Shown: positions 11,469 to 56,910, numbered from the stretch's first letter. The stretch is DNA of 64,000 bases from a virus (IMGVR_UViG_3300037067_015007:1-64000), one strand, 5' to 3'. A program made the numbers and translations. Notes: generated from the sequence alone by a model not told the origin.

Positions 11469-11567
11469 CTTTAACCTCTTCTACAAGTTAGAATTTTAGT
11501 GAGATAATTCAAAGTGGTAGAAGCACTTTGAAAAGGTAGCGAACCCTGTCTCTCACTATTATTTATT
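11469..11567 (-). ncRNA. endonuclease-associated pseudoknotted leader RNA, copy 1
   Basis: P1 UAGUGAGA/UCUCACUA, P3 CAAAGUG/CACUUUG, loop CUUCUAC pairs with GUAGAAG at the SD. Confidence 0.8.
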
Positions 11568-12929
11568 GTTTTCATAATATCTATTCATCCTTTTGTTTAA
11601 AATAATTTTTTTATTAATTTTAGATATTTTTTCAAATTTTTCCTTGGTGTCTGCTGTTGATAAAAATTTAAAAATTGCGTCTAAGACAAAATGATTTGTC
11701 CAATATAAATTCGTTAATTGAGTTGTTTCCTTATTGCGAAAATCTTTCCTGATATTTAATCTTCTTTCAATCATTATTTGTGTGGGTTGAGTTATTTTAA
11801 ATTTATCCTCAATATTTTTTCTTGATGGATTTTTTTCCTGCCATAGATACCATTCATAGAAAGGGTCAAAAAATTCCAACCTTCTCTGCTTGATGTATTC
11901 CAACAAAAATGTGATATCAACCTCAATCATTTTGTCGGATGTACTACTCAATGAATCGGTAAATTTTTGAGTTAGTGAACGAACTTTGTTAACCTCTGTA
12001 GTTTGTTCTAAAGTTCCAATCAAATTCAAATTTTTTAGAGTTTTAAAATGTCTTTCAAAATCAATATCAAGTTCTTTCCATTTTTTCTGAAGTAGTTTTA
12101 AATCAAAGGTGAGAGACTTACCTAACAGATAAGTCATAATAAGGTCGCCTGGTTTTTCTTGTTGCATTAGAATATCTAACACATATTTTAACACACTCTG
12201 TTTTAATTTAGGTTGATATTTTACCTGTTCAAAAATTTTCTCATAAATTGAATATTGCCAATCGTCTAATTTTTTCCAAGTCTTATCATTCTTGACAGGC
12301 GGCAACTCTTTCAATATTGGTGGTTTGATGAAGTTTTTATAGAGGAAGGAACTTTTTAAAAATCCTCTATCCATTTCTCTAGAATGGTTCCAATCAAAAT
12401 AAACCTTTTCATCATCGTATGATGTCATATCAGTATAAGTCAAGATGTAATTAATTTCATTTTGATAAAAAGCACACCATTCTGACATTTTGCATGTGCT
12501 TTCACACCGCAAATTTTTTCGTAATTCATTATCTTCTTTTATCCATTCTCTATATTCAGGAGTTTGTTCATAAGTTGGTTCTTTGGATAGGTGTTTATGA
12601 ATTTCCCACGAGGCCCGAAGAATTTCTTCCAAATGACTATCTCTACAAAGCCGCTCCGTCATGGGATGATATTTTTCAGGCTTGTCAATATTCTTATCCT
12701 TGAAAATTCTTATTAGTTCCTTTTCAAAACAGGATAAATGAGTAGCCTCATAAAACCTACAACGTTTATATTTCCCCATTTCTGCACATGGTTCGCATTT
12801 GTACTTAATTAATTGAAAATCAGAAAGATAGGGATAGAAGCATGCCTTTTTTATTTTCCTAAGTTGAAACAAGAGTGGTTCCTTGGGGTTCAACAAAAAA
12901 TCGAAACTTTCCCTAAATTTGAAATTCAC
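11559..12929 (-). CDS. hypothetical protein (456 aa, Cys-rich N-terminus)
   Basis: long ORF behind an early promoter. Confidence 0.75.
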   Translation of the reverse strand: MNFKFRESFDFLLNPKEPLLFQLRKIKKACFYPYLSDFQLIKYKCEPCAEMGKYKRCRFYEATHLSCFEKELIRIFKDKNIDKPEKYHPMTERLCRDSHLEEILRASWEIHKHLSKEPTYEQTPEYREWIKEDNELRKNLRCESTCKMSEWCAFYQNEINYILTYTDMTSYDDEKVYFDWNHSREMDRGFLKSSFLYKNFIKPPILKELPPVKNDKTWKKLDDWQYSIYEKIFEQVKYQPKLKQSVLKYVLDILMQQEKPGDLIMTYLLGKSLTFDLKLLQKKWKELDIDFERHFKTLKNLNLIGTLEQTTEVNKVRSLTQKFTDSLSSTSDKMIEVDITFLLEYIKQRRLEFFDPFYEWYLWQEKNPSRKNIEDKFKITQPTQIMIERRLNIRKDFRNKETTQLTNLYWTNHFVLDAIFKFLSTADTKEKFEKISKINKKIILNKRMNRYYENNK

Positions 12930-12947
12930 TACCCGTATTATACCACA
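12930..12947 (-). promoter_or_regulatory. extended -10 early promoter
   Basis: tgtggtataatacgggtag. Confidence 0.6.
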
Positions 12948-12982
12948 AGGTGTAATAAAATTCAGAGATAAAAATAAAAAAA

Positions 12983-13369
12983 TTATCCGATACGGATTTT
13001 AAACACTTCTTCGCCGTATCTGTCGTTGGCATCCCGTGCAGTAATCTTGGCAGTATAAAGGCCTGAAACCCCACAAGAATATCCGCAGGTTCCTGACCAT
13101 CCTGAATAAATGACAGGCCCACCAGGAGTAGGATTATTATAGGCTGAATATGCAGACCATCCCGAAAATCCTGAATATCCAATTCGGGTATCCCAAAAAT
13201 ATTTATATTTTTGATTTCCTGCTTCTTGCATTTCGGTTCCTGAAACCGCTACGGCATCTGTAACGCTGTGGCGAATTTCAATATCTACATCAGAGATAGA
13301 GGAATCAATACCTTCCATCTCGGCCTCAATTAAAACGGTTTCATTTAACCTGAAGCTAGTACCTGTCAT
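12983..13369 (-). CDS. virion-associated protein with Ser-Gly-aromatic insert
   Basis: Ig-like context (Y.WDT...GLYTAKITA) containing SGFSGWSAYSAY repeats. Confidence 0.6.
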   Translation of the reverse strand: MTGTSFRLNETVLIEAEMEGIDSSISDVDIEIRHSVTDAVAVSGTEMQEAGNQKYKYFWDTRIGYSGFSGWSAYSAYNNPTPGGPVIYSGWSGTCGYSCGVSGLYTAKITARDANDRYGEEVFKIRIG

Positions 13370-13380
13370 TTTATTTTCTC

Positions 13381-13509
13381 CTAAAAATTCCCGCCTAAAC
13401 TTTTAACCTGAACAGCAATACGAATCGCCTTTCTTGTTGTAACCTGTATAACCATTAGGCTCTTTACCCTGTAGGCTATACGAATTGCTTTTCTTACTGT
13501 TATTCTCAT
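13381..13509 (-). CDS. 42-aa ORF with internal RKAIRIA repeat
   Basis: MRITVRKAIRIAYRVKSLMVIQVTTRKAIRIAVQVKSLGGNF; fills the gap between genes. Confidence 0.4.
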   Translation of the reverse strand: MRITVRKAIRIAYRVKSLMVIQVTTRKAIRIAVQVKSLGGNF

Positions 13510-13520
13510 ACTTCTATTTA

Positions 13521-13703
13521 TTATTCATAGACTAAGGTAATTCTAGTTCCCGCACCTGTTGTTGTTATTGTCAACCCGTCATAAAAATCTAATTCAAAAT
13601 CTATAGAACCTAGAATGGCAGTCAGGTCTATCGTGGCTAGTGTGTTTGTTGCTGTTACAGCATCGTAAATTACTAAGGTTCCCACATTATCCCCATTTAT
13701 CAC
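13521..13703 (-). CDS. small virion-type protein, probably N-terminally truncated
   Basis: frame continues upstream as GAGTLHRV-INGDNVGTLVIYD until a TAG inside the upstream gene. Confidence 0.5.
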   Translation of the reverse strand: MINGDNVGTLVIYDAVTATNTLATIDLTAILGSIDFELDFYDGLTITTTGAGTRITLVYE

Positions 13704-13704
13704 C

Positions 13705-13974: not shown

Positions 13975-14023
13975 TGCAGTCTCCTACCATTATTTAGGGA
14001 AATAAATCAGGGGAAGTTAGATA

Positions 14024-14161
14024 TTACTTCTGTTTATCTTCTTTATCTTTTTCTTCTTTTTTTCTTTTCTCTTCCATCAATTTAAGTTTCGTTTCTGTAT
14101 CTAAAACTTCAACAAGCAATTTTGCTTTCGGTTGAGTCTGTGGGGTTTTGAGTTCCGACAT
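14024..14161 (-). CDS. 45-aa hypothetical protein (not in ORF track)
   Basis: GAGGAGG SD then MSELKTPQTQPKAKLLVEVLDTETKLKLMEEKRKK... Confidence 0.5.
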   Translation of the reverse strand: MSELKTPQTQPKAKLLVEVLDTETKLKLMEEKRKKEEKDKEDKQK

Positions 14162-15524: not shown

Positions 15525-15771
15525 ATGAAACCTCCTTTAATTTTTTTTCCATTTCCTTTTCTACAGTTTTCAGGATAACTGTCAGAATTTTCGGGCTTTT
15601 GATTTCTTCCATAGTAAAGTATCCTGTAAGCCCATCGATATGTTTAAATTTGACTGTGATATTACCATCCACTTTTATAAAGATAAAATTTTCAGTCTCC
15701 ATTTTTTGTATTGTTGGGTCTGCTACAAGTTGTCTTGCACATTGCTTGAATTCTTTTTTGGCAATTTTCAT
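15505..15771 (-). CDS. hypothetical protein
   Basis: 88-aa ORF with GGAG SD. Confidence 0.55.
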   Translation of the reverse strand: MKIAKKEFKQCARQLVADPTIQKMETENFIFIKVDGNITVKFKHIDGLTGYFTMEEIKSPKILTVILKTVEKEMEKKLKEVSYETEKN

Positions 15772-16427
15772 ATTTTATCCTCCAAAGTTATCTTTCTCTT
15801 TTTACATAATTGTTTGTATTTTTCTATGGCTTGTATCCAAATTTCAGGATGTTCTTGATGATGTTTTTTTAATCTTTCTCCTGAATTTTTATTTCTTTCT
15901 GCTAATTTTTTTCTTGCTTCAGGATGTTCATTCCACCATTTTTTTCTTTTTATACTCATTTCTTTTTTCATTTTTTCTGTCTTCATAGGATGTAATTCTC
16001 CATATTTTTTCAAGGAAGTTTGTTTCTTTTTTTCTTTTGTTTTTTCGGAAGGATGAGTTCCATATTGAGGATGATTTTCTCCTGAAAAATTTGCATGATT
16101 TTTTCTCATTTTCTTTTTTGTTATTTCCGTAATTATTTTGTTCTTATTCCCACCACCTTCAATATTATACCCGTTCGGAGCCAAAGTTTCTAACTCCTTT
16201 ATTAAGAAGGTTTCATGCCAATCCAAATCTTCTATAATACAGGAATAAGAAATCCATTTAAAATTTTTTTGTCCATATTTTTTAATTGCTCTATAAAGAA
16301 GAATACTGTCTCCTTTTCTATGATGTTCTTTTTGTCTTAAATCAAAATTTCTTATCGTTTGTCCCACATACATTTTTCCATTTAGTAGATTGATAACTAT
16401 ATAAATAGTTCCAACTTCTTGATTCAT
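15768..16427 (-). CDS. GIY-YIG homing endonuclease
   Basis: GTIY...N.LNGKMYVGQT, PNGYN, NUMOD3-like; start placed at MNQEV after GAGGAG SD. Confidence 0.9.
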   Translation of the reverse strand: MNQEVGTIYIVINLLNGKMYVGQTIRNFDLRQKEHHRKGDSILLYRAIKKYGQKNFKWISYSCIIEDLDWHETFLIKELETLAPNGYNIEGGGNKNKIITEITKKKMRKNHANFSGENHPQYGTHPSEKTKEKKKQTSLKKYGELHPMKTEKMKKEMSIKRKKWWNEHPEARKKLAERNKNSGERLKKHHQEHPEIWIQAIEKYKQLCKKRKITLEDKI

Positions 16428-16528
16428 CTTCAACTCCTCACATAAGTTAGATTTATTAGTGAAGTAATCCAAGATGATGTGAGCATCTTGGAAGGGTAGC
16501 GAACCTTGTCCTTCACTAATATTTATTA
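16428..16528 (-). ncRNA. endonuclease-associated pseudoknotted leader RNA, copy 2
   Basis: P1 UAGUGAAG/CUUCACUA, P3 CAAGAUG/CAUCUUG, loop CUCACAU pairs with AUGUGAG at the SD. Confidence 0.8.
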
Positions 16529-16530
16529 TT

Positions 16531-19500
16531 TCAATCAAAATTATCTTCTAAAAACATTTCTTGATATGCTTCAAGTAAGGTAAGTTTTCGTCCTTTATCA
16601 TGGGCCGTCCACAATTTTCGATAAACATTTTGTAATTCTGCTGCTTTTTCCGAAATAATATCTTTTACCTGAAATGGGTGCATGACTTGAATAGGAAAAT
16701 TTTTAAAAAGAAGTGCATAATAAGTTCCTACTATAACTTTTTTATATTTTTCAATAAGTTTTGGAAGTATTTCCATGAATACTATAGTATCGCCTATTCC
16801 CGCATCAATCTGAAATATTTTACCTTCTATGGGAATAGACCAACTTGCCAATTTACGTTTGAATATCTTATCATCGTTTGACCAAAAATCAGGATTGGCA
16901 TGGTCTCTGATGCCGCCCTGCGGATTGCGGAAGTGCCAAGTGATAGCATCTGTCGTTACGAATATTTTCCACCCCTTGCGTACATATTCATGACTGAATA
17001 ATGTTTCTTCACGGTGAGCTGCGGGAGACAATTCCAAGCAATATTTGATATCTTCAACTTTTCGGTATAAGAATGAAGAATACAAATGCTCAACAGGAAT
17101 GACTTTACCTTTTGGATGATAAAGCCATTGCATATTTTCTCTTGTGTCAATATCTGATAATTTATTCGTATTGAAATAATTCGGCGGGGCCATTTGCGAC
17201 AATTTAGGGTCAAGTACAAGACCCGCAACTGCACCAACCCCATCAGTCATCAAGTTGACTAAATCCTGCAATACATTAGGCTCAGCGTATTCATCATCAT
17301 CCAATCTCCAAATGAAATCCGTCTTGGCTCTATCCAAAACAATTTGATGATTGTGATGTTGTCCTTTTTTCGGCCCGAATAAAACTTCCCATTCAATGCC
17401 TTTTTTGGAAATCATGCTGAACAGGTATTGATACATCGGGTCATTGCGAAGGTCAATCATTTTCCCATCAGGGCCATTGTCAGAGTCGTCAACGATGATG
17501 ATTTTTTTGATAGGGTGAGTCTGCATCAAGACGGAAAGTATTGTCAAAGGAAGCGTAGAGTAATAACGATTTTTCGTGGCGATGTCAACGGTAACATCAA
17601 CTTTCCTATTTGATGTTTTTGATACTTCAGGAGTTAATCTTGTTTGTATAGGATTCCAATTTTTCATGGTGCGGTATTTTTCCATTGCCGCTTGCCTACG
17701 TCTATTGAAATCGTTTAGGTTCTTTTCCAAATAATCTTTATCTTCCACTCCCCAACTCGTTTTAGTCGGGTCAGTCCAGATTTTTACATCTTCCCATTTT
17801 CTAGCATGCAATGCTCTGATTCCCAATCCCGCTTCAGGTCGGGTATTCGACCAAATATGTCTGTCATTGTCAGGCAATGCAGAAACAACTATTTTTACAT
17901 CGGTGTATTTTTTCAAGGTGTATGCAAAATGTAAATCATCACCTTCTGTTTCTAAAAGTACGGGTTCACGGAAGAATGTAGAAAACCATTCCTTTCTTCC
18001 AAACCAACTATGACCGCCGACATCTACTTCAACGGCTTCTTCTGTTTTATCTCCGTTATCCCCATATCTTTTTGCAAGACCATCATTCAACTCATTTTCA
18101 TAATACATTCCATATGCAGAGACGACAGCATGTTCTCGTTTTGAAACTTTCAATGTTTCTTCCAAGTATCCTTCAGCGGGGAATACATCATCATCTAATA
18201 AAAGAACATAGTTAGTTTTTGCAAAAAGAGCCGCAGCAAATCGAGCAGGAAGTTTCAAGTCTTGTTCAGTTGATACGAGTGTAACTCCTTCGGGAATATC
18301 AAAATGAGTTTCGACCCACCCCTCTCCTTTTACGACTTCATTATCTGCATATTTCCATTCCCCTTCTTCCCAATGTTTCGACTTCGTAAGCCATACGATA
18401 ATTTCCTTTGGCTTCAATGTCTGCTTCTTGATGGCCTCTACCTGGTCCTTCAAAAGTTCAGGACGGTTGAATGCCGAAATCACAACGGTGATATCGTCAT
18501 CAATCGGTTTCATTCTGTCGTAACGAACCAATTTGACTTTATCTTCTAAATAATCCTGTTTGAAGGTTTCTTCGAACCCTAAAGCCATGAGATAATTGCA
18601 CAGTTTATCAGCAAGACCTTTCTTTCCTTCCCAACGGAAAATATCTTCATGAGTTTCCATGACAATAGTGTGAATTTTACCAAGTGTTTTCAGCGATGCG
18701 CCGTAGAATAAATCATACTCCGCACCTTCGCAATCAACTTTCAATAGAATAGGTTTACCGTCATCAATAGATGCAACAAGATGGTCTAATCCGATTGTTT
18801 CGGTTCCTGACAATGATGGACGTGAATACATTCTTCCATCAGTCGGGCTGAACTCAGGACGATTGACCATTTCAACCCATTCCCCATCTTTCTTCCCCAC
18901 GGCTTTATCAATAACAAGTATTGACCTTCCTGCTACATTTTGTTTTAAAATTTGCAAGGTCGGTGGTTGGGGTTCAACGGCGACAATTCGCTCAGCTCCA
19001 TATTCATCAGCCAATAAACTGAATATGCCAATGTTTGCCCCTACATCGATTACATTTTTTCCAATGAAATCTTTTTTGAAAACTCTGTATTGGTTGGTTT
19101 CAACTATTTCATAAAAAATGGAACTGTTCTGTGCTTGTAAATCCCTTCGGGCAATCAATGGATTGGATGTTGGCGCATCGTCTAAAATAAATGATGCTTT
19201 CTTTTTCAGTTGGCGAAATTCCTCATATGTCATTTGTGCATCTCTTGCATAATGAAATGCCCAATTATTTTTCTTATCTTCATCGCTAACCCTATCTGCC
19301 ATTCTTTTGTTTCTTTCTATGAACTCCGTGTATCCTGCAAACTTGAAATGAAGAAGATATAATGCTTCGCCTGATTTTACAACAGTTCCAATTGGGTTTG
19401 CTTGATGGCATCCCATAGCATAGCGGATGTCAACACATTTCGGATTGAATATCATCGATTTATTCAAATGTTCAGGGTCAGGGAATCCTTCACGAACACA

Positions 19501-21291
19501 ATCATACAATTGCATAATTTGATTATCAGGAAATGTATCGGAAATCATCTGAAATCCAACTACTGTTGGAACGGTGATTCTTGCGCTCCGAAATTCTTCC
19601 AATTTTCCTTTCAGGTTTTTATGCCATAAAAACTCATCCATATCGCAAACGATAACCCAATCGTAATCTTCCCGATATTCTTTCCATGCCTCGTTTCGAA
19701 TTCTCATCAGTTCAAGATTATTCATCTTGTCGTTTGGCACGGGAACGATTTCAACTTTATCACATGCCCGAAGCAGTTCCAAACTCTTATCAGTCGAACC
19801 GCCGTCATAAACAATAATCTTATCTGCGAAAGTCAAATAATGACGAAGGAAAAACGGAATCATTTTTTCTTCATTCCAACATACTGCTTGAACGAGAATG
19901 CTCATAGGTTGTCCGTGGCTTCCTAATACTTCATCTACAAATATCCAAGGTTTTTCTTCAAAACAAGCCTTGGCAAAATCGAAATCATGGGTAACGAGAC
20001 CTGAAGTAACAGGCCCGACTTTTGGCCCTGTTGTTTTATGCCGCCATTTTTCCGCATGCTTTTTTGCGATATCTGCACGAACCAAATAATTTAAAGAATC
20101 GATATGTGTCCATACGGGGAAATTTTGAAATCCAGGTTCAGGTAAATCTTTGTTTTCTTCCAAATGTCTGATTTTACCCCAAGCCCCGCCGACATTTTTC
20201 AAAAATGTTGCTTGCCAAAGTTTCAAAATCCAATCAGAATTTGCTAAATTGTCGCTGTCATGAAAACAAACCCATTCTTTTTCGGTGGAAGGTAGCGAAT
20301 TTAAGACTGATATTCTTGGCCCCCCGCCGTATGCCCCCTCATGTTCAACAAAGGTATATTCTATTTCAGGAGGATTTGGTTTATTTGACCTAATAGGCCA
20401 TTCTCTATTTTTCTTTTCAACCAACTCTTGTACCTTTTCATCATGTCCATCAGAAACAACATGAATTTTAACGTTGGTATAATATTGATTATATAAAGAC
20501 TCCAATGCCTTATCGAGTTTCGTATATCGTTTATAAACAGGGACAATGACATGAACCTTTTCCCAATATTTTTCAGCAAGCAGTAGTCTGTTTTTATAAG
20601 TCTGTGTATTCCATTCGTCCAAAGAAAATAATTTGCCCGAATGCATCGTATTTTCACCAACATGACTGAGAGGAAATGAACCAACTGATGTATGTGTTTT
20701 TCTATCCCATCCATTCACATAGGAATGAATATGATATCCTGCGTTGATTGCCCGAATGCAAAAGTCAGTATCGTCCGCATAGCCTAAGCCCCAAGCAGTA
20801 TCCAATACTCCTATTCTTTCGAACACTTCCCTCTTTATCATTACACACCAACCGAGCGGGAAGTCAACTCCCGTTATAGGGCAAGGTAATGATTTGGCAC
20901 CAACCAATCCCATCAATGGGTCATTCTCAAATGGAGTCTGAAGAATTTCTAACCATCCACGGTCATGAACGATTACATCGTCATTTAAAAAAACAACATA
21001 ATCGGGATTATCATTTGGCCCTAAAATATTTTTTAGACCTTCATTAATGGCCCCGACATATCCTAAAGGTTTGTCATACCAAAGGTAACTTACAATTAAC
21101 CCTTGTTCTGCTAAAGGATTTAAGAATGCATCAAATTTTGCTCTATCTTCCATGCCGTTCATAACAATCAAAATTTTACTATTTATTTTTGGATTGTTGT
21201 TGAGATTCAGGCTTTCAATACATGGTTTAAGAGCATTGTCGAAATTAATCCCTGCGGATGGAATAAGAATAGTTATTTTCTTATCGTTCAT
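16531..21291 (-). CDS. multi-domain glycosyltransferase/methyltransferase (1586 aa)
   Basis: several GT2-like domains (VFLNDDV, CFHDSD, VCDMDE, LLLDDD, WRLDDDE), FkbM domain (IDVGANIG...LKVDCEGAEY), C-terminal GT9-N-like GIGD motif. Confidence 0.85.
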   Translation of the reverse strand: MNDKKITILIPSAGINFDNALKPCIESLNLNNNPKINSKILIVMNGMEDRAKFDAFLNPLAEQGLIVSYLWYDKPLGYVGAINEGLKNILGPNDNPDYVVFLNDDVIVHDRGWLEILQTPFENDPLMGLVGAKSLPCPITGVDFPLGWCVMIKREVFERIGVLDTAWGLGYADDTDFCIRAINAGYHIHSYVNGWDRKTHTSVGSFPLSHVGENTMHSGKLFSLDEWNTQTYKNRLLLAEKYWEKVHVIVPVYKRYTKLDKALESLYNQYYTNVKIHVVSDGHDEKVQELVEKKNREWPIRSNKPNPPEIEYTFVEHEGAYGGGPRISVLNSLPSTEKEWVCFHDSDNLANSDWILKLWQATFLKNVGGAWGKIRHLEENKDLPEPGFQNFPVWTHIDSLNYLVRADIAKKHAEKWRHKTTGPKVGPVTSGLVTHDFDFAKACFEEKPWIFVDEVLGSHGQPMSILVQAVCWNEEKMIPFFLRHYLTFADKIIVYDGGSTDKSLELLRACDKVEIVPVPNDKMNNLELMRIRNEAWKEYREDYDWVIVCDMDEFLWHKNLKGKLEEFRSARITVPTVVGFQMISDTFPDNQIMQLYDCVREGFPDPEHLNKSMIFNPKCVDIRYAMGCHQANPIGTVVKSGEALYLLHFKFAGYTEFIERNKRMADRVSDEDKKNNWAFHYARDAQMTYEEFRQLKKKASFILDDAPTSNPLIARRDLQAQNSSIFYEIVETNQYRVFKKDFIGKNVIDVGANIGIFSLLADEYGAERIVAVEPQPPTLQILKQNVAGRSILVIDKAVGKKDGEWVEMVNRPEFSPTDGRMYSRPSLSGTETIGLDHLVASIDDGKPILLKVDCEGAEYDLFYGASLKTLGKIHTIVMETHEDIFRWEGKKGLADKLCNYLMALGFEETFKQDYLEDKVKLVRYDRMKPIDDDITVVISAFNRPELLKDQVEAIKKQTLKPKEIIVWLTKSKHWEEGEWKYADNEVVKGEGWVETHFDIPEGVTLVSTEQDLKLPARFAAALFAKTNYVLLLDDDVFPAEGYLEETLKVSKREHAVVSAYGMYYENELNDGLAKRYGDNGDKTEEAVEVDVGGHSWFGRKEWFSTFFREPVLLETEGDDLHFAYTLKKYTDVKIVVSALPDNDRHIWSNTRPEAGLGIRALHARKWEDVKIWTDPTKTSWGVEDKDYLEKNLNDFNRRRQAAMEKYRTMKNWNPIQTRLTPEVSKTSNRKVDVTVDIATKNRYYSTLPLTILSVLMQTHPIKKIIIVDDSDNGPDGKMIDLRNDPMYQYLFSMISKKGIEWEVLFGPKKGQHHNHQIVLDRAKTDFIWRLDDDEYAEPNVLQDLVNLMTDGVGAVAGLVLDPKLSQMAPPNYFNTNKLSDIDTRENMQWLYHPKGKVIPVEHLYSSFLYRKVEDIKYCLELSPAAHREETLFSHEYVRKGWKIFVTTDAITWHFRNPQGGIRDHANPDFWSNDDKIFKRKLASWSIPIEGKIFQIDAGIGDTIVFMEILPKLIEKYKKVIVGTYYALLFKNFPIQVMHPFQVKDIISEKAAELQNVYRKLWTAHDKGRKLTLLEAYQEMFLEDNFD

Positions 21292-22552: not shown

Positions 22553-23218
22553 TCACCTACTGTTATTTAGTGTTTTATTACTTTTCATTAAATTTTCCCC
22601 CGCCCATAAAGGTTGAAGATTTGTGTAATGACATGCTTTTAGAAACTCTTTCCTGTTTTGAAGATTGAAAGAGTCTAAAGGTATAATGTGGTCAATATGC
22701 CATCCATAAAATCCGTAGTTATCCCAATTCATACCCTCTTTCCATTTAGATTCCAAATAAGTTTTGAATTCAGGAATAGAACATCCGAGGTCTTTAACTG
22801 CGGAGCCTGATTTTTGATTATTTTTTATTGCTAAACGAATTCTGCTTCTTAAATAATGAGCGAGTTTAAAATGAATATCAGTTTTTAGTTTATTATTAAT
22901 TTGTGTATATATTTTTTCTTTATTATTTTGATAATATTTCTTTTTTTCTATTTTTATTTTCTCTTTGTTGTTTTGCCGATATAATTTTTTTCTATTTTTT
23001 ATCTCTTTTTTATGATTTTCATAATATTTTGTTTCTTGTATAATTATCTCTTTTTTATGATTTTCATAATATTTTTTTTGACGTTCTTTTTGTCTTTTTA
23101 ATTTTTCTTCTTTAGATAATGTTATTCGGGGTAAAATTCCTTTTTTTCTACGATATTTTTCTCTTCTTTTCTTTATTGCTTCTTTTCTTTCTTCATCAGT
23201 AAAGTATTTTTTCTTCAC
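22553..23218 (-). CDS. HNH homing endonuclease
   Basis: WHIDHIIPL...CHYTNLQPLW..EN; KKYYENHK repeats in N-terminus; GTG start after GGAGG. Confidence 0.9.
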   Translation of the reverse strand: MKKKYFTDEERKEAIKKRREKYRRKKGILPRITLSKEEKLKRQKERQKKYYENHKKEIIIQETKYYENHKKEIKNRKKLYRQNNKEKIKIEKKKYYQNNKEKIYTQINNKLKTDIHFKLAHYLRSRIRLAIKNNQKSGSAVKDLGCSIPEFKTYLESKWKEGMNWDNYGFYGWHIDHIIPLDSFNLQNRKEFLKACHYTNLQPLWAGENLMKSNKTLNNSR

Positions 23219-23320
23219 TTTAACCTCCACCAAAGTTTAGTTAGTGTAGGTAATCCGAAAAGTGGTGGCTTTTCAGAAGGGTAGCAACTCCTTGTCCCTA
23301 CACTATTATTTAGTGTTTTA
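22563..23320 (-). mobile_element. leader RNA + HNH cassette bounded by a 15-bp direct repeat
   Basis: TAAAACACTAAATAA at 23306-23320 and 22563-22577. Confidence 0.55.
23219..23314 (-). ncRNA. endonuclease-associated pseudoknotted leader RNA, copy 3
   Basis: P1 UAGUGUAGG/CCUACACUA, P3 GAAAAG/CUUUUC, loop CCACCA pairs with UGGUGG at the SD. Confidence 0.8.
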
Positions 23321-26687: not shown

Positions 26688-26924
26688 GTGATGGCTTTAT
26701 ACAAATTTTCTAAGCAACAAAAATATTGCGGGACATGCGATTATTGGTATGGTTGCAGAAAACTCGATTCTATTTGGAATCCAATGTTTGTTATTGTTGA
26801 AGGAGCAGGTGCCGAAGAAATGGGAGTTTGTGGACATCGCCGCAGCGGTTGGTGGAATCAGAAGAAAAAAGCAAATATGACTTGTCCGAAATGGGAATTG
26901 TTTGCAAGGTTGAAGAATCTCTAA
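26688..26924 (+). CDS. small Cys-rich protein
   Basis: CGTCDYW...C...CPKW. Confidence 0.5.
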   Translation: MMALYKFSKQQKYCGTCDYWYGCRKLDSIWNPMFVIVEGAGAEEMGVCGHRRSGWWNQKKKANMTCPKWELFARLKNL

Positions 26925-26926
26925 AA

Positions 26927-27640
26927 ATGGGAACAATATATATAGCAACTAACTTGACAAATCAAAAGCAATATGTGGGTAGAACTGTACAAAATTTTAA
27001 AAATAGGAAAAATAGTCATATAAAATTGAGCAAAGAAGAAAATCCAAAATTCTTTTTTCATAAGGCTATTAAAAAATATGGAGTAGATTCTTTTAAATGG
27101 ATATGTATAGAATATCCCAAAAAAGAGTTGAATGAAATGGAGATGTTTTGGATAAAGACTTTGGGCACAAAGGCACCAAATGGTTACAATTTAACTGACG
27201 GTGGAGAAGGTACTTTCAACCCATCAAAAATAACAAGAATGAAAATGAGTGAAAAAAGAAAAGGTATGTATGAAGGAGAAAAAAATCCTTTTTTCGGTAA
27301 ACATCATTCTACTGAAGTTTGCCAATTTTTATCTGATATCAATAAAGGTGAAAATCATCCGCATTGGGGTAAAAAACATTCTGAAAAAACCAAGCAACTA
27401 CAATCTTTAAATATAAAAAATCATCCACAAAGAAAAGAGATAAATGAAAAAATAAGAAAAGCCAAGTTAAAAATGTTCAAATTCCTATCTCCTAAAGGAA
27501 AAGAAGTTATTTGGAAAAATGGTATCAATAAATTTTGTGAATATTATCAACTAAACTATCATAGTATTTGTGCTATTATGAGCAATCATTGGAAACGAAC
27601 CGAATATAAAGGTTGGAAGTTTTTAGGGATGGTAGAATAA
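26927..27640 (+). CDS. GIY-YIG homing endonuclease with NUMOD3 repeats
   Basis: GTIYIATN...YVGRT, PNGYNLTDGGEG, NPFFGKHH; no leader RNA upstream. Confidence 0.9.
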   Translation: MGTIYIATNLTNQKQYVGRTVQNFKNRKNSHIKLSKEENPKFFFHKAIKKYGVDSFKWICIEYPKKELNEMEMFWIKTLGTKAPNGYNLTDGGEGTFNPSKITRMKMSEKRKGMYEGEKNPFFGKHHSTEVCQFLSDINKGENHPHWGKKHSEKTKQLQSLNIKNHPQRKEINEKIRKAKLKMFKFLSPKGKEVIWKNGINKFCEYYQLNYHSICAIMSNHWKRTEYKGWKFLGMVE

Positions 27641-35341: not shown

Positions 35342-35342
35342 C

Positions 35343-35441
35343 AATAAATAGTAGTGAAGGACAGGGCTGACGAGCCTTTTTGAGATGCCTTAATCATTTC
35401 AAATTACTTCATTTATATTTTGACCGATTAAGGAGGGCAAA
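35343..35441 (+). ncRNA. endonuclease-associated pseudoknotted leader RNA, copy 4
   Basis: P1 AGUGAAG/CUUCAUU, P2 GGCU-GACG-AGCC, P3 UUGAGAUG/CAUUUCAA, loop CCUUAAU pairs with AUUAAGG at the SD. Confidence 0.75.
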
Positions 35442-36011
35442 ATGAATTATAAACATCTTACTGAAGAAGAAAGAAAACAATCAAAACAAAGAAGAAATCA
35501 TAGATATTATGAAAATAATAAAAAAAAGATAATTATAGAAGTAAAAAAATATCGTAAAAAACATAAAGAAATTTTACAGAAGTACAGTAAAAATTATTAT
35601 CAAACTCATAAAAAGGAAATAAATACTAATCATAAAAATTATCGTGAAAATCATAGAAAAGAAATGTCCAAATATATTGTAAATAGATTAAAAACAGACA
35701 TAAATTTTAAACTTGCCCATAATTTACGAAATAGATTGAGAAAGGCTTTACATCGTAACCAAAAATCGGGTTCCGCAGTTGGAGATTTAGGTTGTTCTAT
35801 TTCTGCCCTCAAAACATATTTAGAATCCAAGTTTCAAGAGGGAATGGCTTGGGAGAATTGGAGTAAAACAGGTTGGCATATAGACCATATTATACCTTTG
35901 GATTCATTCAATCTTCAAAATAGGGAAGAATTTCTAAAGGCTTGTCATTACACAAATCTTCAACCACTTTGGGCTGAAGAGAATATTACTAAAGGAAACA
36001 ATTTATTATAA
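35442..36011 (+). CDS. HNH homing endonuclease
   Basis: WHIDHIIPLDSFNLQNREEFLKACHYTNLQPLWAEEN. Confidence 0.9.
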   Translation: MNYKHLTEEERKQSKQRRNHRYYENNKKKIIIEVKKYRKKHKEILQKYSKNYYQTHKKEINTNHKNYRENHRKEMSKYIVNRLKTDINFKLAHNLRNRLRKALHRNQKSGSAVGDLGCSISALKTYLESKFQEGMAWENWSKTGWHIDHIIPLDSFNLQNREEFLKACHYTNLQPLWAEENITKGNNLL

Positions 36012-36064
36012 TAAATAATATTGAAAAGGATTTTCTCTTTCACTTTCAATAAGGATTTCACAAT

Positions 36065-39991: not shown

Positions 39992-40000
39992 CATGAAAAC

Positions 40001-40103
40001 AATAAATAATAGTGTAGGGACAAGGAGTAATTACCCATTCAGAATACCTCGTATATTCTGGATTACCTACACTATTTTAATAATTTTACGAGGGGGTTAT
40101 TGA
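40001..40103 (+). ncRNA. endonuclease-associated pseudoknotted leader RNA, copy 5
   Basis: P1 UAGUGUAGG/CCUACACUA, P3 CAGAAUA/UAUUCUG, loop CCUCGUA pairs with UACGAGG at the SD. Confidence 0.8.
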
Positions 40104-40685
40104 ATGTCAATACAAAAATATTTTACTAAAGAAGAAAGAAGAATTGCACACAATAAAACTAATGAAAAATATCGTAGAAGTAAAGAAATAGTAGCAAGAA
40201 AAAAATTCAATACGGAAAATGAAAGAATAGCAGCAGGAATAGAATATCAAAAACAATATTATCAAAACCACAAGAAAGAAAAATTAAAAAAAGAAAAAGA
40301 ATATCGTAAAAATCATAAAGAAGAAAGAAATTTATGGGCAAGAAAACATGATAATGAAAAATATGAAACGAATATTAAGTTTAAACTTGCTAAAATTTTA
40401 CGAAGTAGAATGCGTTTGGCAATTCACAATAATCAAAGAGCAGGTTCAGCAGTTCGAGACCTTGGATGTTCTATTCCTGAATTAAAAATATATTTAGAGA
40501 ATAAATTTCAAGAAGGAATGACTTGGGAAAATTGGAAACATAATGGTTGGCATATTGACCACGTTATTCCCTTGGATAACTTCAATCTTCAGAACAGGGA
40601 AGAGTTTCTAAAAGCATGTCATTACACTAATCTTCAACCTTTGTGGGCTGAAGAAAATTTAAGTAAACATAATAAGGTGATATAA
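40104..40685 (+). CDS. HNH homing endonuclease
   Basis: WHIDHVIPL...CHYTNLQPLWAEEN. Confidence 0.9.
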   Translation: MSIQKYFTKEERRIAHNKTNEKYRRSKEIVARKKFNTENERIAAGIEYQKQYYQNHKKEKLKKEKEYRKNHKEERNLWARKHDNEKYETNIKFKLAKILRSRMRLAIHNNQRAGSAVRDLGCSIPELKIYLENKFQEGMTWENWKHNGWHIDHVIPLDNFNLQNREEFLKACHYTNLQPLWAEENLSKHNKVI

Positions 40686-50930: not shown

Positions 50931-50942
50931 TATGATAAAAAC

Positions 50943-51039
50943 AATAAATAATAGTGTAGGGACAAGGAGTAGCTACCCTTTCAAGATGCCTGTTCATCTT
51001 GGATTACCTACACTATTTTTGACCGAACAGGAGGGCAAA
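50943..51039 (+). ncRNA. endonuclease-associated pseudoknotted leader RNA, copy 6
   Basis: P1 UAGUGUAGG/CCUACACUA, P3 CAAGAUG/CAUCUUG, loop CCUGUU(C) pairs with GAACAGG at the SD. Confidence 0.8.
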
Positions 51040-51639
51040 ATGGAAGAAGTAAAAAATATTATTTACAAAGCAAAGAATGAAGAAAGAAAATGTTTTTATG
51101 TTGGAAAATCTGTTTATGGATTAACTGCAAGAAAACATCAGCATAAACATCGATGTTTTAAGACGAATTCAAATTATAAACTTTACAATTTTATCCGAAA
51201 ATACGGTTGGGATACTTTTACTTGGGAAATATTAGCAGTTTATTCCACACCTGAAGAACTACCACAAGCAGAGATAGATTGGTTAGTAGAACAAAAGAAA
51301 GAGTTTTCGGATTGGAAGTGTTTGAATTTGACAGATGGTGGAGATGGAAATTTAGGATGGAAACCTTCGGAAGAAATAAAAAGAAAAATTAGTGTTTCTA
51401 ATAAAGGAGAAAAAAATCATAATTTTGGGAAAACAATGACAAAAACACAAAAAGAAAAAATAGGTAAAAAATTAAAAGGCCGAATATTATCTAAAAAAAC
51501 AAGAGAAAAAATGTCAAATTCAAAAAAAGGTAAAAATAATCCTATGTTTGGAATCCATCGTTTTGGGGAAAATGCTCCTAATTTTGGTCGTTTGAGAACT
51601 GATGTATCCACTTTGGAGAGAATAAAAAATGCCTGTTAA
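51040..51639 (+). CDS. GIY-YIG homing endonuclease with NUMOD3 repeats
   Basis: IIYKA.N.....YVGKS, E..W, NLTDGGDG, NPMFG. Confidence 0.85.
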   Translation: MEEVKNIIYKAKNEERKCFYVGKSVYGLTARKHQHKHRCFKTNSNYKLYNFIRKYGWDTFTWEILAVYSTPEELPQAEIDWLVEQKKEFSDWKCLNLTDGGDGNLGWKPSEEIKRKISVSNKGEKNHNFGKTMTKTQKEKIGKKLKGRILSKKTREKMSNSKKGKNNPMFGIHRFGENAPNFGRLRTDVSTLERIKNAC

Positions 51640-53194
51640 TTTTGGTATTGATGGTACACAAGTAGTAAATTATCATTATAAAAATAGACTTATTTCAAGT
51701 ACGTCTAATAAACTTCTTTTTAATATATTTAATAAGGGTGTAATTCCTGAAAGTGGAACACCCACAATAGTTGATATAAATGGTGATGTTAGCATCCAAG
51801 GAATACAAATAAAAATTCCATCAGGATTCTCATTCTTCATTTCTCCAAACAATAGATATAAAACAGGAGTCATTCAAGACGATTTTAATTCTCTTTCTAC
51901 ATTAGAACAAGCCATTCTCGAAAGACAGATTTTAAAATGTGATATTGTGAAAGATTTTTTTGTAACTCCAAAAAATTTTACGGGAACAACTGATGTTATA
52001 AATAAAAGAATTGTAGCCGCTGACCACGGATTTAATGCAGGTGATATTATTTTTATCAAAGGTGGAGAATCCGCAGGTTTAACTTATGGAACCCGATATC
52101 GAGTATTGGCAGGAGTAACTGAATACGATTTTCAAATTTCGGAATTTCATGACGACCCCGCCGATGATGAAGTTTTTGAATTTACTACAAATGTCGAAAT
52201 AACTGTTATTCAAGCATTTGGTGGTTGGTTGGTTGCGGAATATAACTATTTGGAATTTGCGGATTTACCTGTAGAATTTAGTGTTCTTACAGAAGCCATC
52301 AAACCATCAGATAATAAAGTGGTTTTGGGAGAAATAGCAGGAGACCCAATTAACGGATATATTCAAACTATTTCCACTATTCAACAGGATATTACACAAC
52401 TAAGTTCAAATATTTTTTATGAAATGAATGTTGATAGGGTTGATGGATACCATGCAGGAAATGAATCAGGATATATTCCTATATCAAATAGCGGAGTGTG
52501 TTATGGTTTAAATGCCGAAATGATAAATGGATATTCAGGATATGAAGCCGCAGAAAAATGGACACAAAATTTAGGTTTAAATGCGGAATACATAGCCGAT
52601 GAATTTGGTCGATATTATCAACCAGGAAATACTTCTGTAAAAATTCCATTAAGTAATACATTGATGAATCGGGATTTGAATGCTGAATTTGTTGGTGGGT
52701 CAGGATATACAACATTAGAAAGTGCAAAACACACACATTCTCTTGACAATATCACAGACGGCCCAACATTTAAAAAACCACTCAATGTCAATATCAATCA
52801 ACACTTGACGCATGACTCATTCAAAAATAGAGCAATCACAAAAGATAAAATACATAATGAATGTTTCTTTGCTCGTAATGATGACCTTGGTGGAAAACCA
52901 ATGATAGTTACGGGACAGGAAACATTGACGGCAAACTATTCACATATTTCATTTGACCCTGAACATCAATTTGATGCTTCGTTCACAGAACCGCCTGATA
53001 TCATGTTACAGATTATTGACACAGCGGGAGATTTTGGAGCTTGGAGTCATATTAAAGTCAAAGCGGCTGATATCACACCATCTCATTTTACTGTTGAATA
53101 TACAGGATATTCGGGTCTTGATGCGGGTCAATATTCAGGAGTTAGTTTATCAAGTTTGACAATACAATATGTTGCATTTGGATATGGGGCATAG
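51629..53194 (+). CDS. tail fibre / baseplate protein, paralog 1
   Basis: GTQVVNYHY, LNAE.., HTHSLD.ITDG motifs shared with the next paralogs. Confidence 0.7.
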   Translation: MPVNFGIDGTQVVNYHYKNRLISSTSNKLLFNIFNKGVIPESGTPTIVDINGDVSIQGIQIKIPSGFSFFISPNNRYKTGVIQDDFNSLSTLEQAILERQILKCDIVKDFFVTPKNFTGTTDVINKRIVAADHGFNAGDIIFIKGGESAGLTYGTRYRVLAGVTEYDFQISEFHDDPADDEVFEFTTNVEITVIQAFGGWLVAEYNYLEFADLPVEFSVLTEAIKPSDNKVVLGEIAGDPINGYIQTISTIQQDITQLSSNIFYEMNVDRVDGYHAGNESGYIPISNSGVCYGLNAEMINGYSGYEAAEKWTQNLGLNAEYIADEFGRYYQPGNTSVKIPLSNTLMNRDLNAEFVGGSGYTTLESAKHTHSLDNITDGPTFKKPLNVNINQHLTHDSFKNRAITKDKIHNECFFARNDDLGGKPMIVTGQETLTANYSHISFDPEHQFDASFTEPPDIMLQIIDTAGDFGAWSHIKVKAADITPSHFTVEYTGYSGLDAGQYSGVSLSSLTIQYVAFGYGA

Positions 53195-53197: not shown

Positions 53198-54517
53198 ATG
53201 AAAACACTAAATGATGGGACACAAGTTTTGAACATTCATTATCGCCAAGAATTAGCCCCTGACGTTCTCAATAAAATATTTTATAAAGTATTTACCGCAG
53301 GGGTAATTGAAGGAACCTTTGAGTTTGGTTTAGATTCCGTTACAATTTCTTCTGTAAGTTTTTTGATTGCTCCGCAAAATCAATCAGATTTATTAGTTCG
53401 TATCGATACAACAGAACCAATAACCATAAAAAATACTTCTCCGACAAATGTTTATTTGACAGCACGATATCGTTGGGAAAATGAAAACACAGGCGCAGAA
53501 TTTTTATTTGCTGATGATTCAACAATTGTGGAAACAGACGTGATTCTTGTTGGCTTGGTTCTTGATGAAGATGGAAAAATATCTTCGCTTGATTATGACG
53601 TACAGGAACGAGCAAAATTGAAACTTATTCAGACTAATACAGCATTCCCGCTGATTTCTAAATTGGATGGTTATGGTGTTGGGCATGATTATGGACAGAT
53701 TCCTGTTTCCGATGGAATATTAAACTCCTCTCTCAATGCTCAATATTTCAATGGAAAAGAAGTAACAAAGTTTGCAGTCTCAAAACAACTTCCACAAATT
53801 GTAACAGGTGGGGATATTGCTACTATTATTGAACCTACTCTTCCTGAATGGATGGATGGTGTAGCGGTCGGAAAAGGAGAAGGCGTTACTGCTGAGTTTG
53901 TAATGGATAAAAAAGTTCAACCACAAGACGGAACAACAAAACCAGGAACGCAAAACCAAATTCCTGTAGCCAATACCGTTTTACAAAAAGATTTGAATAT
54001 TGAATTTTTAGGTGGGCATCTTCATACAGAGTTTGCAAAAACAACACATTCACATTCTTTGGATGAAATTTTTGACAATGGCAACCCTTCAGCACCTAAT
54101 TATATTCGGATACTTGCCGTCAAAAACAATCTAGCCACGGGCGATTCAATCGAAGAAGATGATATCGAATATACCAATGTCGATATGATTGCTTATGACC
54201 CAACAATTTCTAACAGATTTCAACCCGTGTATGAAACAGGAGATTTTGATTTAGCAGGGGCGGTAGAAGGAACTGTTACATTTCAAAGACCAATGAAAAA
54301 CGCTCGTATCATTTTACAGAGGGCACCAAAATCAATAGAAACGGTTGTTGCGGGGGCAGAAAAAAGAACAGCACGAATTACCGAAATTACAAATGCGGGG
54401 TTCAAGGCAAAACAGATGGGTAGTATAATAAAATCAGGAGCCACTTATATAAGAACAGATGCTTCAGATGCGGCGGCTAATCAATATTATTGGTTTGCGA
54501 TTGGGGAGAAGGTATAA
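53198..54517 (+). CDS. tail fibre / baseplate protein, paralog 2
   Basis: GTQVLNIHY, LNAQYFNG, HSHSLDEI, YYWFAIG end. Confidence 0.7.
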   Translation: MKTLNDGTQVLNIHYRQELAPDVLNKIFYKVFTAGVIEGTFEFGLDSVTISSVSFLIAPQNQSDLLVRIDTTEPITIKNTSPTNVYLTARYRWENENTGAEFLFADDSTIVETDVILVGLVLDEDGKISSLDYDVQERAKLKLIQTNTAFPLISKLDGYGVGHDYGQIPVSDGILNSSLNAQYFNGKEVTKFAVSKQLPQIVTGGDIATIIEPTLPEWMDGVAVGKGEGVTAEFVMDKKVQPQDGTTKPGTQNQIPVANTVLQKDLNIEFLGGHLHTEFAKTTHSHSLDEIFDNGNPSAPNYIRILAVKNNLATGDSIEEDDIEYTNVDMIAYDPTISNRFQPVYETGDFDLAGAVEGTVTFQRPMKNARIILQRAPKSIETVVAGAEKRTARITEITNAGFKAKQMGSIIKSGATYIRTDASDAAANQYYWFAIGEKV

Positions 54518-54518
54518 A

Positions 54519-55136
54519 ATGTGGGGATTTATTTACGCTTATACCATAAAAAATAAAAAATATATTGGTCAGGCTATTAATTTAAAAGATAGAATGAAAA
54601 AACATTTTAAAGAAACAGCAAATCCTTATTTCCATAATTCTTTACGAAAATATTTTAAACCTGGCGATTTTCGTATTTTGGAAGCACATTATGATACTCC
54701 TGAAAAACTTAAAATTTTATTAGATAATAGAGAAATTTTTTGGATTGATAAATTAAATACTTATGACCCTAAACAAAAAACAGGTTGGAATTTGACGAAA
54801 GGTGGTAATGGACAGTTAGGATGGGTGCCTAATGAAAAAACAAGAAAAAAAATGTCAGATATTAAAATAGGTAAACCCACATGGAGTAAGGGCCAAAAAT
54901 TTACCACAAAACACAAAGAAAATATTTCAAAAAATCATGCAAATGTTGCTAATGAAAATAATCCACGGGCGAAATCAGTTATATTAATCTCTCCAAATAA
55001 TGAAAAATATCAATTAGAATGTTATGCTCCTTTTTGTAAAAAAAATAAATTAAGTCCAGCGTCTATTTGTTTTGTTCTTCAGGGAAAACAAAAACATCAT
55101 AAAGGATGGACAGGGAATTATATAAATGCAAGGTAA
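54519..55136 (+). CDS. GIY-YIG homing endonuclease
   Basis: GFIYAY...KKYIGQA, RE..WI, GWNLTKGG; no leader RNA upstream. Confidence 0.85.
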   Translation: MWGFIYAYTIKNKKYIGQAINLKDRMKKHFKETANPYFHNSLRKYFKPGDFRILEAHYDTPEKLKILLDNREIFWIDKLNTYDPKQKTGWNLTKGGNGQLGWVPNEKTRKKMSDIKIGKPTWSKGQKFTTKHKENISKNHANVANENNPRAKSVILISPNNEKYQLECYAPFCKKNKLSPASICFVLQGKQKHHKGWTGNYINAR

Positions 55137-56805
55137 AATAGGAACTGCGGGGCAAATTATTAATTTTAATTATGTCCACGAATTTATTGCACAAAATTTG
55201 AATAAGATTCTTTATTCAACTTTCACACCAGGCGTTTTAAAATTAGTTTTATCTGATTTTTCAGTAATCACAACAAAAGTTGAAATTCTTGAATTTTCAG
55301 GATTAATTAGACCATACAATAAAAACTTCATTGTAAAAGTAGATACAATGAACACTATAACGGTATTAACAGATTCTACAAAACCATATTTAGTAGCTCG
55401 TATGGATTGGATAACGCCGCCTGATGGATATGATTATGAAACGGCAACTTATGGAGTATCAGGATATTCTGGATATTTTGAAGATACTGCAATATCTTGT
55501 GAATCATTTGACCCTGTTGGAGATAAAATAATTTCAACAGACCATAAACTTGTGATAGGAGATGTGATTCGTTTTAGTGCAACGGTCGGCGGGGTTACAA
55601 AAGATGTAGATTATTATGTAGTCAATACCGATTCAAACTCATTTCAAATTTCTACGACAGCAGGTGGGACTGTTCTTGATATCATTAGCACTTTGTCAAT
55701 TACCAATACATATCGAAAAATGAATTCTCATATTGTGAGATTTGATATGGTTGCTGAAAATGACATCAATCCCGATTATGATGTCATTTTAGTGAAATTG
55801 GATTTCGGCCCTGGTGGAGCGAAAGTGGTACTTAATTATGCGGAACAAACCCAAGTTTATTTGAATGATTATTGCATAAATTATAATTTAGTTCAGCGGT
55901 CGGGAGTTCGAACTTTAGAAGGAACCAATACAGACTATATTGGCATTTTAGGATTTAGTGGGACATCAGGAATATATGATTCAACAGATGAAACAATCGA
56001 ACGTCATGTGGGCCACGCTTCAGGGCACATTCCTTGGAGTGAAGTATCGGGTTATACACCTGTAATGAATTATGGCCTCAATGCTCAATATGTAAATGGA
56101 ATAACAGTAAGTAATGCGGATAATAGTATCGGATTAAAAAATAATATTTTGTCAAAAAATATGGTCGCCGCTAGATTATTTTTAAATGGATTCGAATATG
56201 CAATAGGACAATCAGGAGTAACAACCTATTCGGGATTTTCAGGCTATACAGGAATTTCGGGATGGAGTGGCGTTTCGGGATATTCGGCTTATTCAGGATA
56301 TTTGCCCCTCAACAATGCCGTGTTGCAGACTTCATTGAATGCGGAATATTTCGGGGGATATAAAATTTCAGACTTTACTCCCGCAGGGCATACCCATAAT
56401 CTTGATGAAATTGCCGATGGAGTATCATATATAAGAATGAGAGGAGTAGATGTTGACGGTTTGGTAACAACCGATGGTCTGACTGATGGGGCATTGGAAT
56501 ATCGGCATCAAAGTATTTCCGTTCCATTTCGCTATGATGGAGCAACAGAAAAGAAAATGTTCGCATTGGCAGGAGAAATAATGAAGAATGGTTCGACAAC
56601 AGTAGCATTTAGAAAAACTTTCACTTCAGCTCCACGAGTGTTTATTCTAAATAATGAAAGTGATGAATGGAAAGCTGTAGATGAGGTATCAATAACTACG
56701 ACAGGATTTGTAATTCATCACCATGAAAATACTTCAGGTACTTCATTAGTAGCAGACACAACACTTTTTAGAACTCATTGGATTGCGATTGGAGAGTTGT
56801 CTTAA
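55126..56805 (+). CDS. tail fibre / baseplate protein, paralog 3
   Basis: GQIINFNY, LNAEYFGG, HTHNLDEI, SGYSG inserts, HWIAIG end. Confidence 0.7.
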   Translation: MQGKIGTAGQIINFNYVHEFIAQNLNKILYSTFTPGVLKLVLSDFSVITTKVEILEFSGLIRPYNKNFIVKVDTMNTITVLTDSTKPYLVARMDWITPPDGYDYETATYGVSGYSGYFEDTAISCESFDPVGDKIISTDHKLVIGDVIRFSATVGGVTKDVDYYVVNTDSNSFQISTTAGGTVLDIISTLSITNTYRKMNSHIVRFDMVAENDINPDYDVILVKLDFGPGGAKVVLNYAEQTQVYLNDYCINYNLVQRSGVRTLEGTNTDYIGILGFSGTSGIYDSTDETIERHVGHASGHIPWSEVSGYTPVMNYGLNAQYVNGITVSNADNSIGLKNNILSKNMVAARLFLNGFEYAIGQSGVTTYSGFSGYTGISGWSGVSGYSAYSGYLPLNNAVLQTSLNAEYFGGYKISDFTPAGHTHNLDEIADGVSYIRMRGVDVDGLVTTDGLTDGALEYRHQSISVPFRYDGATEKKMFALAGEIMKNGSTTVAFRKTFTSAPRVFILNNESDEWKAVDEVSITTTGFVIHHHENTSGTSLVADTTLFRTHWIAIGELS

Positions 56806-56812
56806 ATGAAAA

Positions 56813-56910
56813 TAATAAATAGTAGTGTAGGGACAGGGAGTCATGACCCTTTCAAGATGTCCACTCATCCTGAATTACCTACACTATATTTTGACCAAGT
56901 GGAGGGGCAA
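56813..56910 (+). ncRNA. endonuclease-associated pseudoknotted leader RNA, copy 7
   Basis: P1 UAGUGUAGG/CCUACACUA, P3 CAAGAUG/CAUCCUG, loop UCCACU pairs with AGUGGA at the SD. Confidence 0.8.

Follow-up and report, generated by a model that had tools for sequence, protein, structure and literature searches.

A leader of about 100 bases precedes homing-endonuclease genes in the DNA analysed here, a 64,000-nucleotide window that comprises bases 1-64000 of the incomplete, 89,320-base virus record IMGVR_UViG_3300037067_015007. The leader was found at all seven window sites named in a first-pass annotation of the sequence, and every copy runs up to the start codon of a nuclease gene. It opens with a promoter-like block and continues into four helices, P1 to P4, and the loops of P3 and P4 are complementary to each other and covary. 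We consider it probable, at roughly 60%, that the element is a portable cassette whose RNA acts in cis as a lock on the ribosome-binding site (RBS) and thereby brakes the translation of free-standing homing endonucleases. Such a cassette would consist of a T4-type late promoter (YAATAAATA) and a 5' leader of about 95 nt, in which the P3 and P4 loops would kiss, clamping the weak P4 hairpin shut and hiding the RBS, while a three-way junction would hold P3 in position. Judged from the sequence, the kiss would form in vivo and lower translation. The first-pass annotation had likewise proposed a structured cis-regulatory RNA that masks the nuclease RBS, and the helices, the covariation of the kissing loops, the overlap with the Shine-Dalgarno sequence (SD) and the link to nuclease genes support this proposal.

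The seven copies lie within 1-2 nt of where they had been reported, the reported position being the base beside the start codon for minus-strand copies and the 5' end for plus-strand copies. The number seven holds for the window; a pattern search of the whole 89,320-base record located four further copies, all on the plus strand (67004, 67903, 69995 and 77200), so that the record contains 11. An exact-pattern scan of IMG/VR yielded 63 loci, part of them true RNA and the remainder chance matches. A covariance model from the copies, which had been suggested as a check, was built from 45 sequences with P1, P2 and P3 (model R1); searched against the window, the rest of the record and the IMG/VR pattern loci, it gave 63 matches, 58 of them distinct. 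In a metagenome scan 12 of the 80 loci listed were true, mostly on contigs already found, with few new contigs. Eight copies are present in a complete 223-kb relative with terminal repeats, and five in a 169-kb relative. The RNA family defined by R1 is confined to a narrow clade, and its host is an uncultured clade of T4-like giant phages; the tail sheath is closest to those of T4-type phages (28-33% identity). Window DNA was found in groundwater and landfill metagenome runs; no RNA run was listed among the public runs with window DNA, and GenBank phages gave no nucleotide match to window or leader, so that no isolated phage in GenBank has the leader.

Behind the promoter box, the leader forms a three-way junction of P1 (8-9 bp), P2 and P3 (9 bp). 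Across the 58 distinct sequences, 94% of cells were standard-paired and both sides changed in 15 of the 22 nested pairs, whereas none of 500 shuffles and no slid register came near the observed values of pairing and covariation. Compensatory changes had been noted before in P1 and P3, and the larger set bears this out strongly. P3 has 9 bp in every sequence, is 98.8% paired and shows compensatory changes in eight of its nine pairs. P1 has 8 or 9 bp, and its inner five pairs covary (for example, G-C in 39 sequences against A-U in 18); the outer pairs at columns 11 and 13 have uncompensated breaks in 7-8 sequences each and retain about 90% pairing. P2, a short G-C stem, has a loop that varies freely. 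Folded singly, all seven window copies gave the same three-way junction as their minimum-energy structure, with z scores of -2.5 to -5.1. The junction strands measure 4, 0-1 and 3 nt, and about 13 junction nucleotides or pairs are near-invariant, namely GACA, the GG/CC of P2, the U-A pair at the base of P3, and UUA. A pairing of the junction strand ACAAG with the linker was considered and dropped, as inspection revealed no correlation across sequence types.

The helices contain 40 G-U pairs against 8 A-C mismatches, and because of this large excess the fold belongs to the sense-strand RNA. This bears on the idea that the true agent is an antisense RNA from the opposite strand, or a DNA operator or recombination site, with the RNA fold a by-product. 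I-TevI does bind an operator over its own late promoter (PMC2988022), and promoter-containing repeats flank some of the present cassettes; however, the G-U excess is found on the sense strand only, the compensatory changes keep pairing rather than sequence, and one shared DNA operator is unlikely because the nuclease families differ. We regard this idea as scarcely credible.

In the first 45 instances the entire P3 loop of 6-7 nt had its Watson-Crick complement in a stretch that stops 7-11 nt short of the start codon (45/45), whereas non-cognate combinations of loop and tail from this set reached a complementarity of at least 6 nt in only 1.2%. Among the 58 distinct rows, 54 had full Watson-Crick complementarity of the loop, with 43 different loops, all four pair types at loop positions 3-6 and three at position 7; the four exceptions were one G-U case, two decayed copies and one copy truncated at a contig end. 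The complementarity to 6-7 nt overlapping the SD that had been described for the window copies thus extends to the larger set. The SD-side strand had been taken for the second strand of a plain pseudoknot. The pairing itself was confirmed, but this strand proved to be the loop of a fourth hairpin, P4, which enclosed it in 45 of 45 folds with the partner strand constrained unpaired, its closing pair mostly directly adjoining that strand. In unconstrained minimum-energy folds P4 appeared in six of the seven window copies. Counted outward from the loop, P4 positions 1-8 were 76-98% paired and position 9 was 49% paired, and the stem fell into two sequence classes, UUUUGACC/GGGCAAAA and AACUU/AGGUU. 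In alignment A4, which was unfitted to the kiss and to P4, the four alignable kissing pairs were double-changed in 17-28 sequences each, and double changes were present in all four P4 pairs counted.

Since the SD-side strand is exactly the P4 loop, the contact between P3 and P4 is a kissing loop: the two loops are complementary over their full length and covary, as is the case in a kissing-loop complex. P4 follows the junction within a few bases, with a P1-P4 linker of 1-3 nt; an H-type pseudoknot without connecting nucleotides would be strained, and a kissing geometry fits better. The SD is located in the loop and 3' strand of P4, whose stem ends 1-5 nt before the start codon, and 3-7 nt of the kissing partner strand fall within the predicted SD:anti-SD duplex. 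P4 alone is weak, at -1 to -7.5 kcal/mol. Duplex energies averaged -8.7 kcal/mol for cognate loops, -4.0 kcal/mol for non-cognate loops and -10.0 kcal/mol for the SD with the 16S tail, so that the cognate kiss and the SD duplex are comparably strong.

Each leader copy opens with a T4-type late-promoter box, YAATAAATA or CACTAAATA. The first-pass annotation had counted the leading TAAATA as part of the element; it is present in that place, but is better described as a late promoter that the leader shares with ordinary genes. The window contains 13 YAATAAATA boxes where 5.2 would be expected, and every match in the record is co-oriented with the local genes. Nine matches lie outside leaders, mostly immediately upstream of ordinary genes, structural genes included, often with an SD 6-7 nt after the box; these nine are probably late promoters of the phage that give nearly leaderless late mRNAs. 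Homologues of the T4 late sigma factor gp55 were found in both related records searched (G001 and G002, one of them complete; E about 1e-7), and none was found in the incomplete 89-kb record itself. The gp55-like matches (L075, G001 54869-55240; L074, G002 164632-165000) contain two TAA stops, which may reflect a split gene or a match that extends past the gene ends. A leader copy lies 1.4 kb downstream of the gp55-like match in G001.

In T4 late promoters, roughly one helical turn separates an 8-bp TATA box from the transcription start downstream (PMC2988020). By analogy, transcription would start about 6 nt after the TAAATA box, within the 5' strand of P1, a placement that fits the clean covariation of the inner P1 pairs only. 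As the P3 loop and the 5' strand of P4 lie 45-80 nt downstream of the box, at most the outer P1 pairs would be lost from the promoter transcript. That these outer pairs are nevertheless about 90% paired suggests that read-through transcripts with a complete P1 also matter. The cassettes lie within long co-oriented operons without visible terminators. The brake on nuclease translation would act on the cassette's own transcripts as well as on the abundant read-through transcripts of the late structural operons around it, and the outer 4 bp of P1, being available only on read-through transcripts, may make for a tighter lock there. The same operon context, together with a P1 at or near the 5' end of the cassette's own transcript (a start deduced from PMC2988020), would suit a different role, in which the leader governs the fate of the mRNA, by stabilising its 5' end, by serving as a processing site or, as a self-cleaving ribozyme, by splitting the nuclease message from the upstream operon. 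Such a role would not account for the complementarity of the P3 loop to the SD-bearing loop, seen in 54 of 58 sequences. No Rfam ribozyme family matched even at E up to 10, the junction strands do not fit the hammerhead core, and nothing spoke for the ribozyme that had been mentioned as an alternative; we consider a role in mRNA fate very improbable. A leader peptide was rejected, as an in-frame upstream ATG is present in some copies only and sequence conservation by itself accounts for the open frame.

The downstream genes link the leader to nucleases and to nothing else. In the window, the genes behind copies 1, 2, 6 and 7 matched GIY-YIG and NUMOD3 in Pfam. Those behind copies 3, 4 and 5 had no Pfam match and matched PHROG 1035, 'endonuclease VII'; the label HNH that they had been given is fair because an alignment of twelve such proteins has an invariant His-Me finger signature, W-H-I-D-H...N...Y-T-N-L-Q-P-(L/M)-W...N..K. 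The reported division into four GIY-YIG and three HNH genes therefore holds. In the search of phage and metagenome sequences with tabulation of downstream genes, which had also been suggested, all 56 distinct downstream frames were nucleases or fragments of nucleases, of the GIY-YIG (three subtypes), HNH and DUF7487 types, the last occurring behind leaders in relatives. Leader similarity is 81% within nuclease families and 81% between them, and both length variants of P1 are found with both nuclease families, which argues that the leader has been exchanged repeatedly between families. The sharing by two unrelated families that had been noted extends to three. Global pairwise identity of coding DNA was uninformative in this respect, since unrelated AT-rich genes already reach about 73%.

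Further observations concern the flanks and the mobility of the cassettes. The promoter box for the next gene, and sometimes its RBS, lies inside the 3' end of the nuclease gene (22563-22577, 36009-36017 and 57430-57456), so that cassettes are flanked by promoter-containing repeats. In T4, promoters for the next gene likewise lie within the 3' ends of nuclease genes (PMC2988022). Contig record 13 of landfill run X2 is identical to the window until the promoter (50955) and rejoins it at 51648; in between, a different insert of 818 bases, starting right after the promoter, replaces copy 6 and its GIY-YIG gene. This polymorphism is consistent with cassette mobility. The contigs of four runs gave no information on the start or end of the element, only this strain difference at the copy-6 site.

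Several findings weigh against a simple RBS lock. The leader is absent from three other nuclease genes of the record, two of them GIY-YIG and one HNH. At about 54520 and 59796 the nuclease gene begins immediately behind the stop codon of the gene before it, suggesting translational coupling, and the gene in 26828-27640 is preceded, at a distance of about 250 nt, by a bare late promoter (26676). A P1-P4 linker as short as that given above may leave little steric room for a full 9-bp P1 beside a straight P3-kiss-P4 stack. The P3 loop and the 5' strand of P4, the two partners of the SD region, both come after the predicted start, and hence no mechanism for opening the lock is visible in the sequence. 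A search for a second covarying partner of either kissing strand, covering 150 nt upstream, the element's 5' part and 140 nt of coding sequence, found none above non-cognate controls. Finally, plain occlusion needs no near-invariant junction, which hints at a bound factor or ligand.

The last two points lead to the reading of the leader as a sensor switch, in which the junction would bind a metabolite or a protein of phage or host as an aptamer or protein-binding site, the kissing loop with P4 would be the expression platform, and the bound factor would decide whether the kiss forms, thereby timing or dosing nuclease synthesis. Little or no variation is seen in GACA, UUA, the P2 GG/CC and the basal U-A pair of P3, in contrast to the freely varying P3, P2 loop, kissing loops and P4; the layout is that of the regulatory kissing loop of the cobalamin riboswitch, and the negative search for a second partner leaves no RNA-only release mechanism visible. 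However, the downstream genes are solely selfish nucleases of three families, without metabolic or transport genes, so that no ligand suggests itself; the three families have no common domain that could bind RNA; no Rfam riboswitch matched; and conserved junctions can serve folding geometry alone. We regard a sensor switch as unlikely on balance, and we are still more doubtful of the specific form in which the junction senses a metabolite, phage protein or host protein to gate the P3-P4 kiss and is portable among unrelated nuclease families. If true, the gated kiss would be the first riboswitch-like or factor-gated control of homing-endonuclease expression. We favour the RBS lock, in which the junction would hold P3 in position and which a ligand, a protein or the 5' end of the transcript might open. 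The coordinates of the leaders, their genes and related features are collected in Table 1.

Table 1. Leader copies with their kissing loops and downstream genes, leaderless nuclease genes and non-leader promoter boxes (window coordinates unless marked as record).
Feature	Position	Strand	Description
Leader copy 1	11469..11568	-	Promoter box 11565-11560, three-way junction, P4 with SD; R1 94.7 bits
Copy 1 P1	11558-11551 with 11504-11497	-	
Copy 1 kissing loops	P3 11523-11517; P4 11484-11478	-	P3 CUUCUAC; P4 GUAGAAG
Gene behind copy 1	10806..11468	-	GIY-YIG + NUMOD3 homing endonuclease; Pfam PF01541, PF07460
Leader copy 2	16428..16528	-	Promoter box 16525-16520; R1 92.1 bits
Copy 2 kissing loops	P3 16483-16477; P4 16443-16437	-	P3 CUCACAU; P4 AUGUGAG
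Gene behind copy 2	15768..16427	-	GIY-YIG + NUMOD3 homing endonuclease; Pfam
Leader copy 3	23219..23315	-	Promoter box 23312-23307, CACTAAATA form; R1 94.2 bits
Copy 3 kissing loops	P3 23268-23263; P4 23232-23227	-	P3 CCACCA; P4 UGGUGG
Gene behind copy 3	22553..23218	-	HNH homing endonuclease, GTG start; PHROG 1035, HIDH...N...NLQPLW motif
Leader copy 4	35342..35441	+	Promoter box 35345-35350; most divergent P2 (GGGCU/AGCCU); R1 83.5 bits
Copy 4 kissing loops	P3 35388-35394; P4 35427-35433	+	P3 CCUUAAU; P4 AUUAAGG
Gene behind copy 4	35442..36011	+	HNH homing endonuclease; PHROG 1035, motif alignment
Leader copy 5	40000..40103	+	Promoter box 40003-40008; R1 93.8 bits
Copy 5 kissing loops	P3 40047-40053; P4 40087-40093	+	P3 CCUCGUA; P4 UACGAGG
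Gene behind copy 5	40104..40685	+	HNH homing endonuclease; PHROG 1035, motif alignment
Leader copy 6	50942..51039	+	Promoter box 50945-50950; R1 94.6 bits; P1-P4 in unconstrained fold
Copy 6 kissing loops	P3 50989-50994; P4 51026-51031	+	P3 CCUGUU; P4 AACAGG
Gene behind copy 6	51040..51639	+	GIY-YIG + NUMOD3 homing endonuclease; Pfam
Leader copy 7	56813..56910	+	Promoter box 56816-56821; R1 91.9 bits
Copy 7 kissing loops	P3 56860-56865; P4 56898-56903	+	P3 UCCACU; P4 AGUGGA
Gene behind copy 7	56911..57456	+	GIY-YIG + NUMOD3 homing endonuclease; Pfam
Leaderless nuclease genes	26828-27640, 54459-55136, 59766-60338	+	
Non-leader YAATAAATA boxes	Window 5666, 13523(-), 14382(-), 26670(-), 26676, 28829, 36009; record 64421, 72551		Probable late promoters

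Two genes near leader copies were also noted. The HNH gene behind copy 11 (L071 13289-13990, record 77289-77990) encodes an odd C-terminal extension rich in proline and serine and continues into DNA of unusually high G+C content; another element may have disrupted it. Immediately upstream of leader copy 2, in the region of virion genes, lies a frame of 1586 aa (16531-21291, minus strand) with glycosyltransferase and methyltransferase matches.

As had been suspected, the leader fits no known riboswitch or ribozyme in Rfam. Rfam 15 gave zero matches in the window at gathering scores, and four copies (copy 6 and three others) searched at E up to 10 gave chance-level matches only. The int-alpA motif (RF02996, gathering score 35.8 bits) had no match in the 89-kb record even at E up to 10, was absent from the cmscan lists of the copies, and was not found in the main text of PMC5737381. 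In the literature we found no kissing loop or pseudoknot at homing-endonuclease genes, only work on T4 hairpins. RBS-sequestering structures beside late promoters have been described for I-TevI, I-TevII, I-TevIII and segB of T4 and for mobE of Aeh1 (PMC2988022, PMC3014915), and the novelty is for this reason less than first supposed. The leader appears to be an undescribed, portable four-helix kissing-loop module that would do the job of T4's simple hairpins.

Homing endonucleases are selfish and potentially harmful to the phage, and their restraint decides whether they persist. T4 solves this with a hairpin over the RBS; the leader would be a modular and more intricate solution, in which GIY-YIG, HNH and DUF7487 nucleases reuse a single four-helix RNA whose kissing loop is programmable and which occurs 11 times in 89 kb. 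For RNA biology it represents a family that is absent from the catalogues and covaries with unusual clarity (43 different loop pairs), a predicted natural intramolecular kissing-loop translation lock and possibly an orphan sensor. For phage genomics it offers a simple marker for nuclease cassettes and late promoters in an uncultured T4-like clade. Such a compact lock, with 6-7 bases determining its specificity, could also serve as a tool for throttling toxic genes.

Compared with the T-even hairpins, the leader is likewise found in a T4-type phage, with a TATAAATA-like late promoter directly upstream, in front of nuclease genes in polycistronic units, and with the SD of the homing endonuclease buried in a conserved RNA helix, here the P4 stem and loop with the kiss; the presumed purpose, keeping a selfish nuclease low, is also the same. 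The T-even structures, however, consist of one hairpin each, specific to the gene, and late transcripts lack its 5' strand, whereas the leader is one conserved four-helix module used by at least three unrelated nuclease families, and its late transcripts, from the start site predicted here, would retain the strands that pair with the SD region. In the cobalamin riboswitch, the L5-L13 contact pairs a loop of the 5' domain with the loop of an RBS hairpin and turns translation off. The leader resembles it in that a loop of a folded 5' domain kisses a downstream RBS-bearing hairpin, and differs from it in size, junction type and nuclease genes, without any match in sequence or in Rfam; riboswitch-like traits, a conserved junction and a platform-like kissing hairpin, stand in a gene context of nucleases only. 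Stable kissing complexes such as ColE1 RNA I/RNA II and HIV TAR/TAR* have loops of 6-7 nt in which every base is paired, as in the leader, but those contacts are intermolecular or engineered, whereas that of the leader is intramolecular and tied to a three-way junction.

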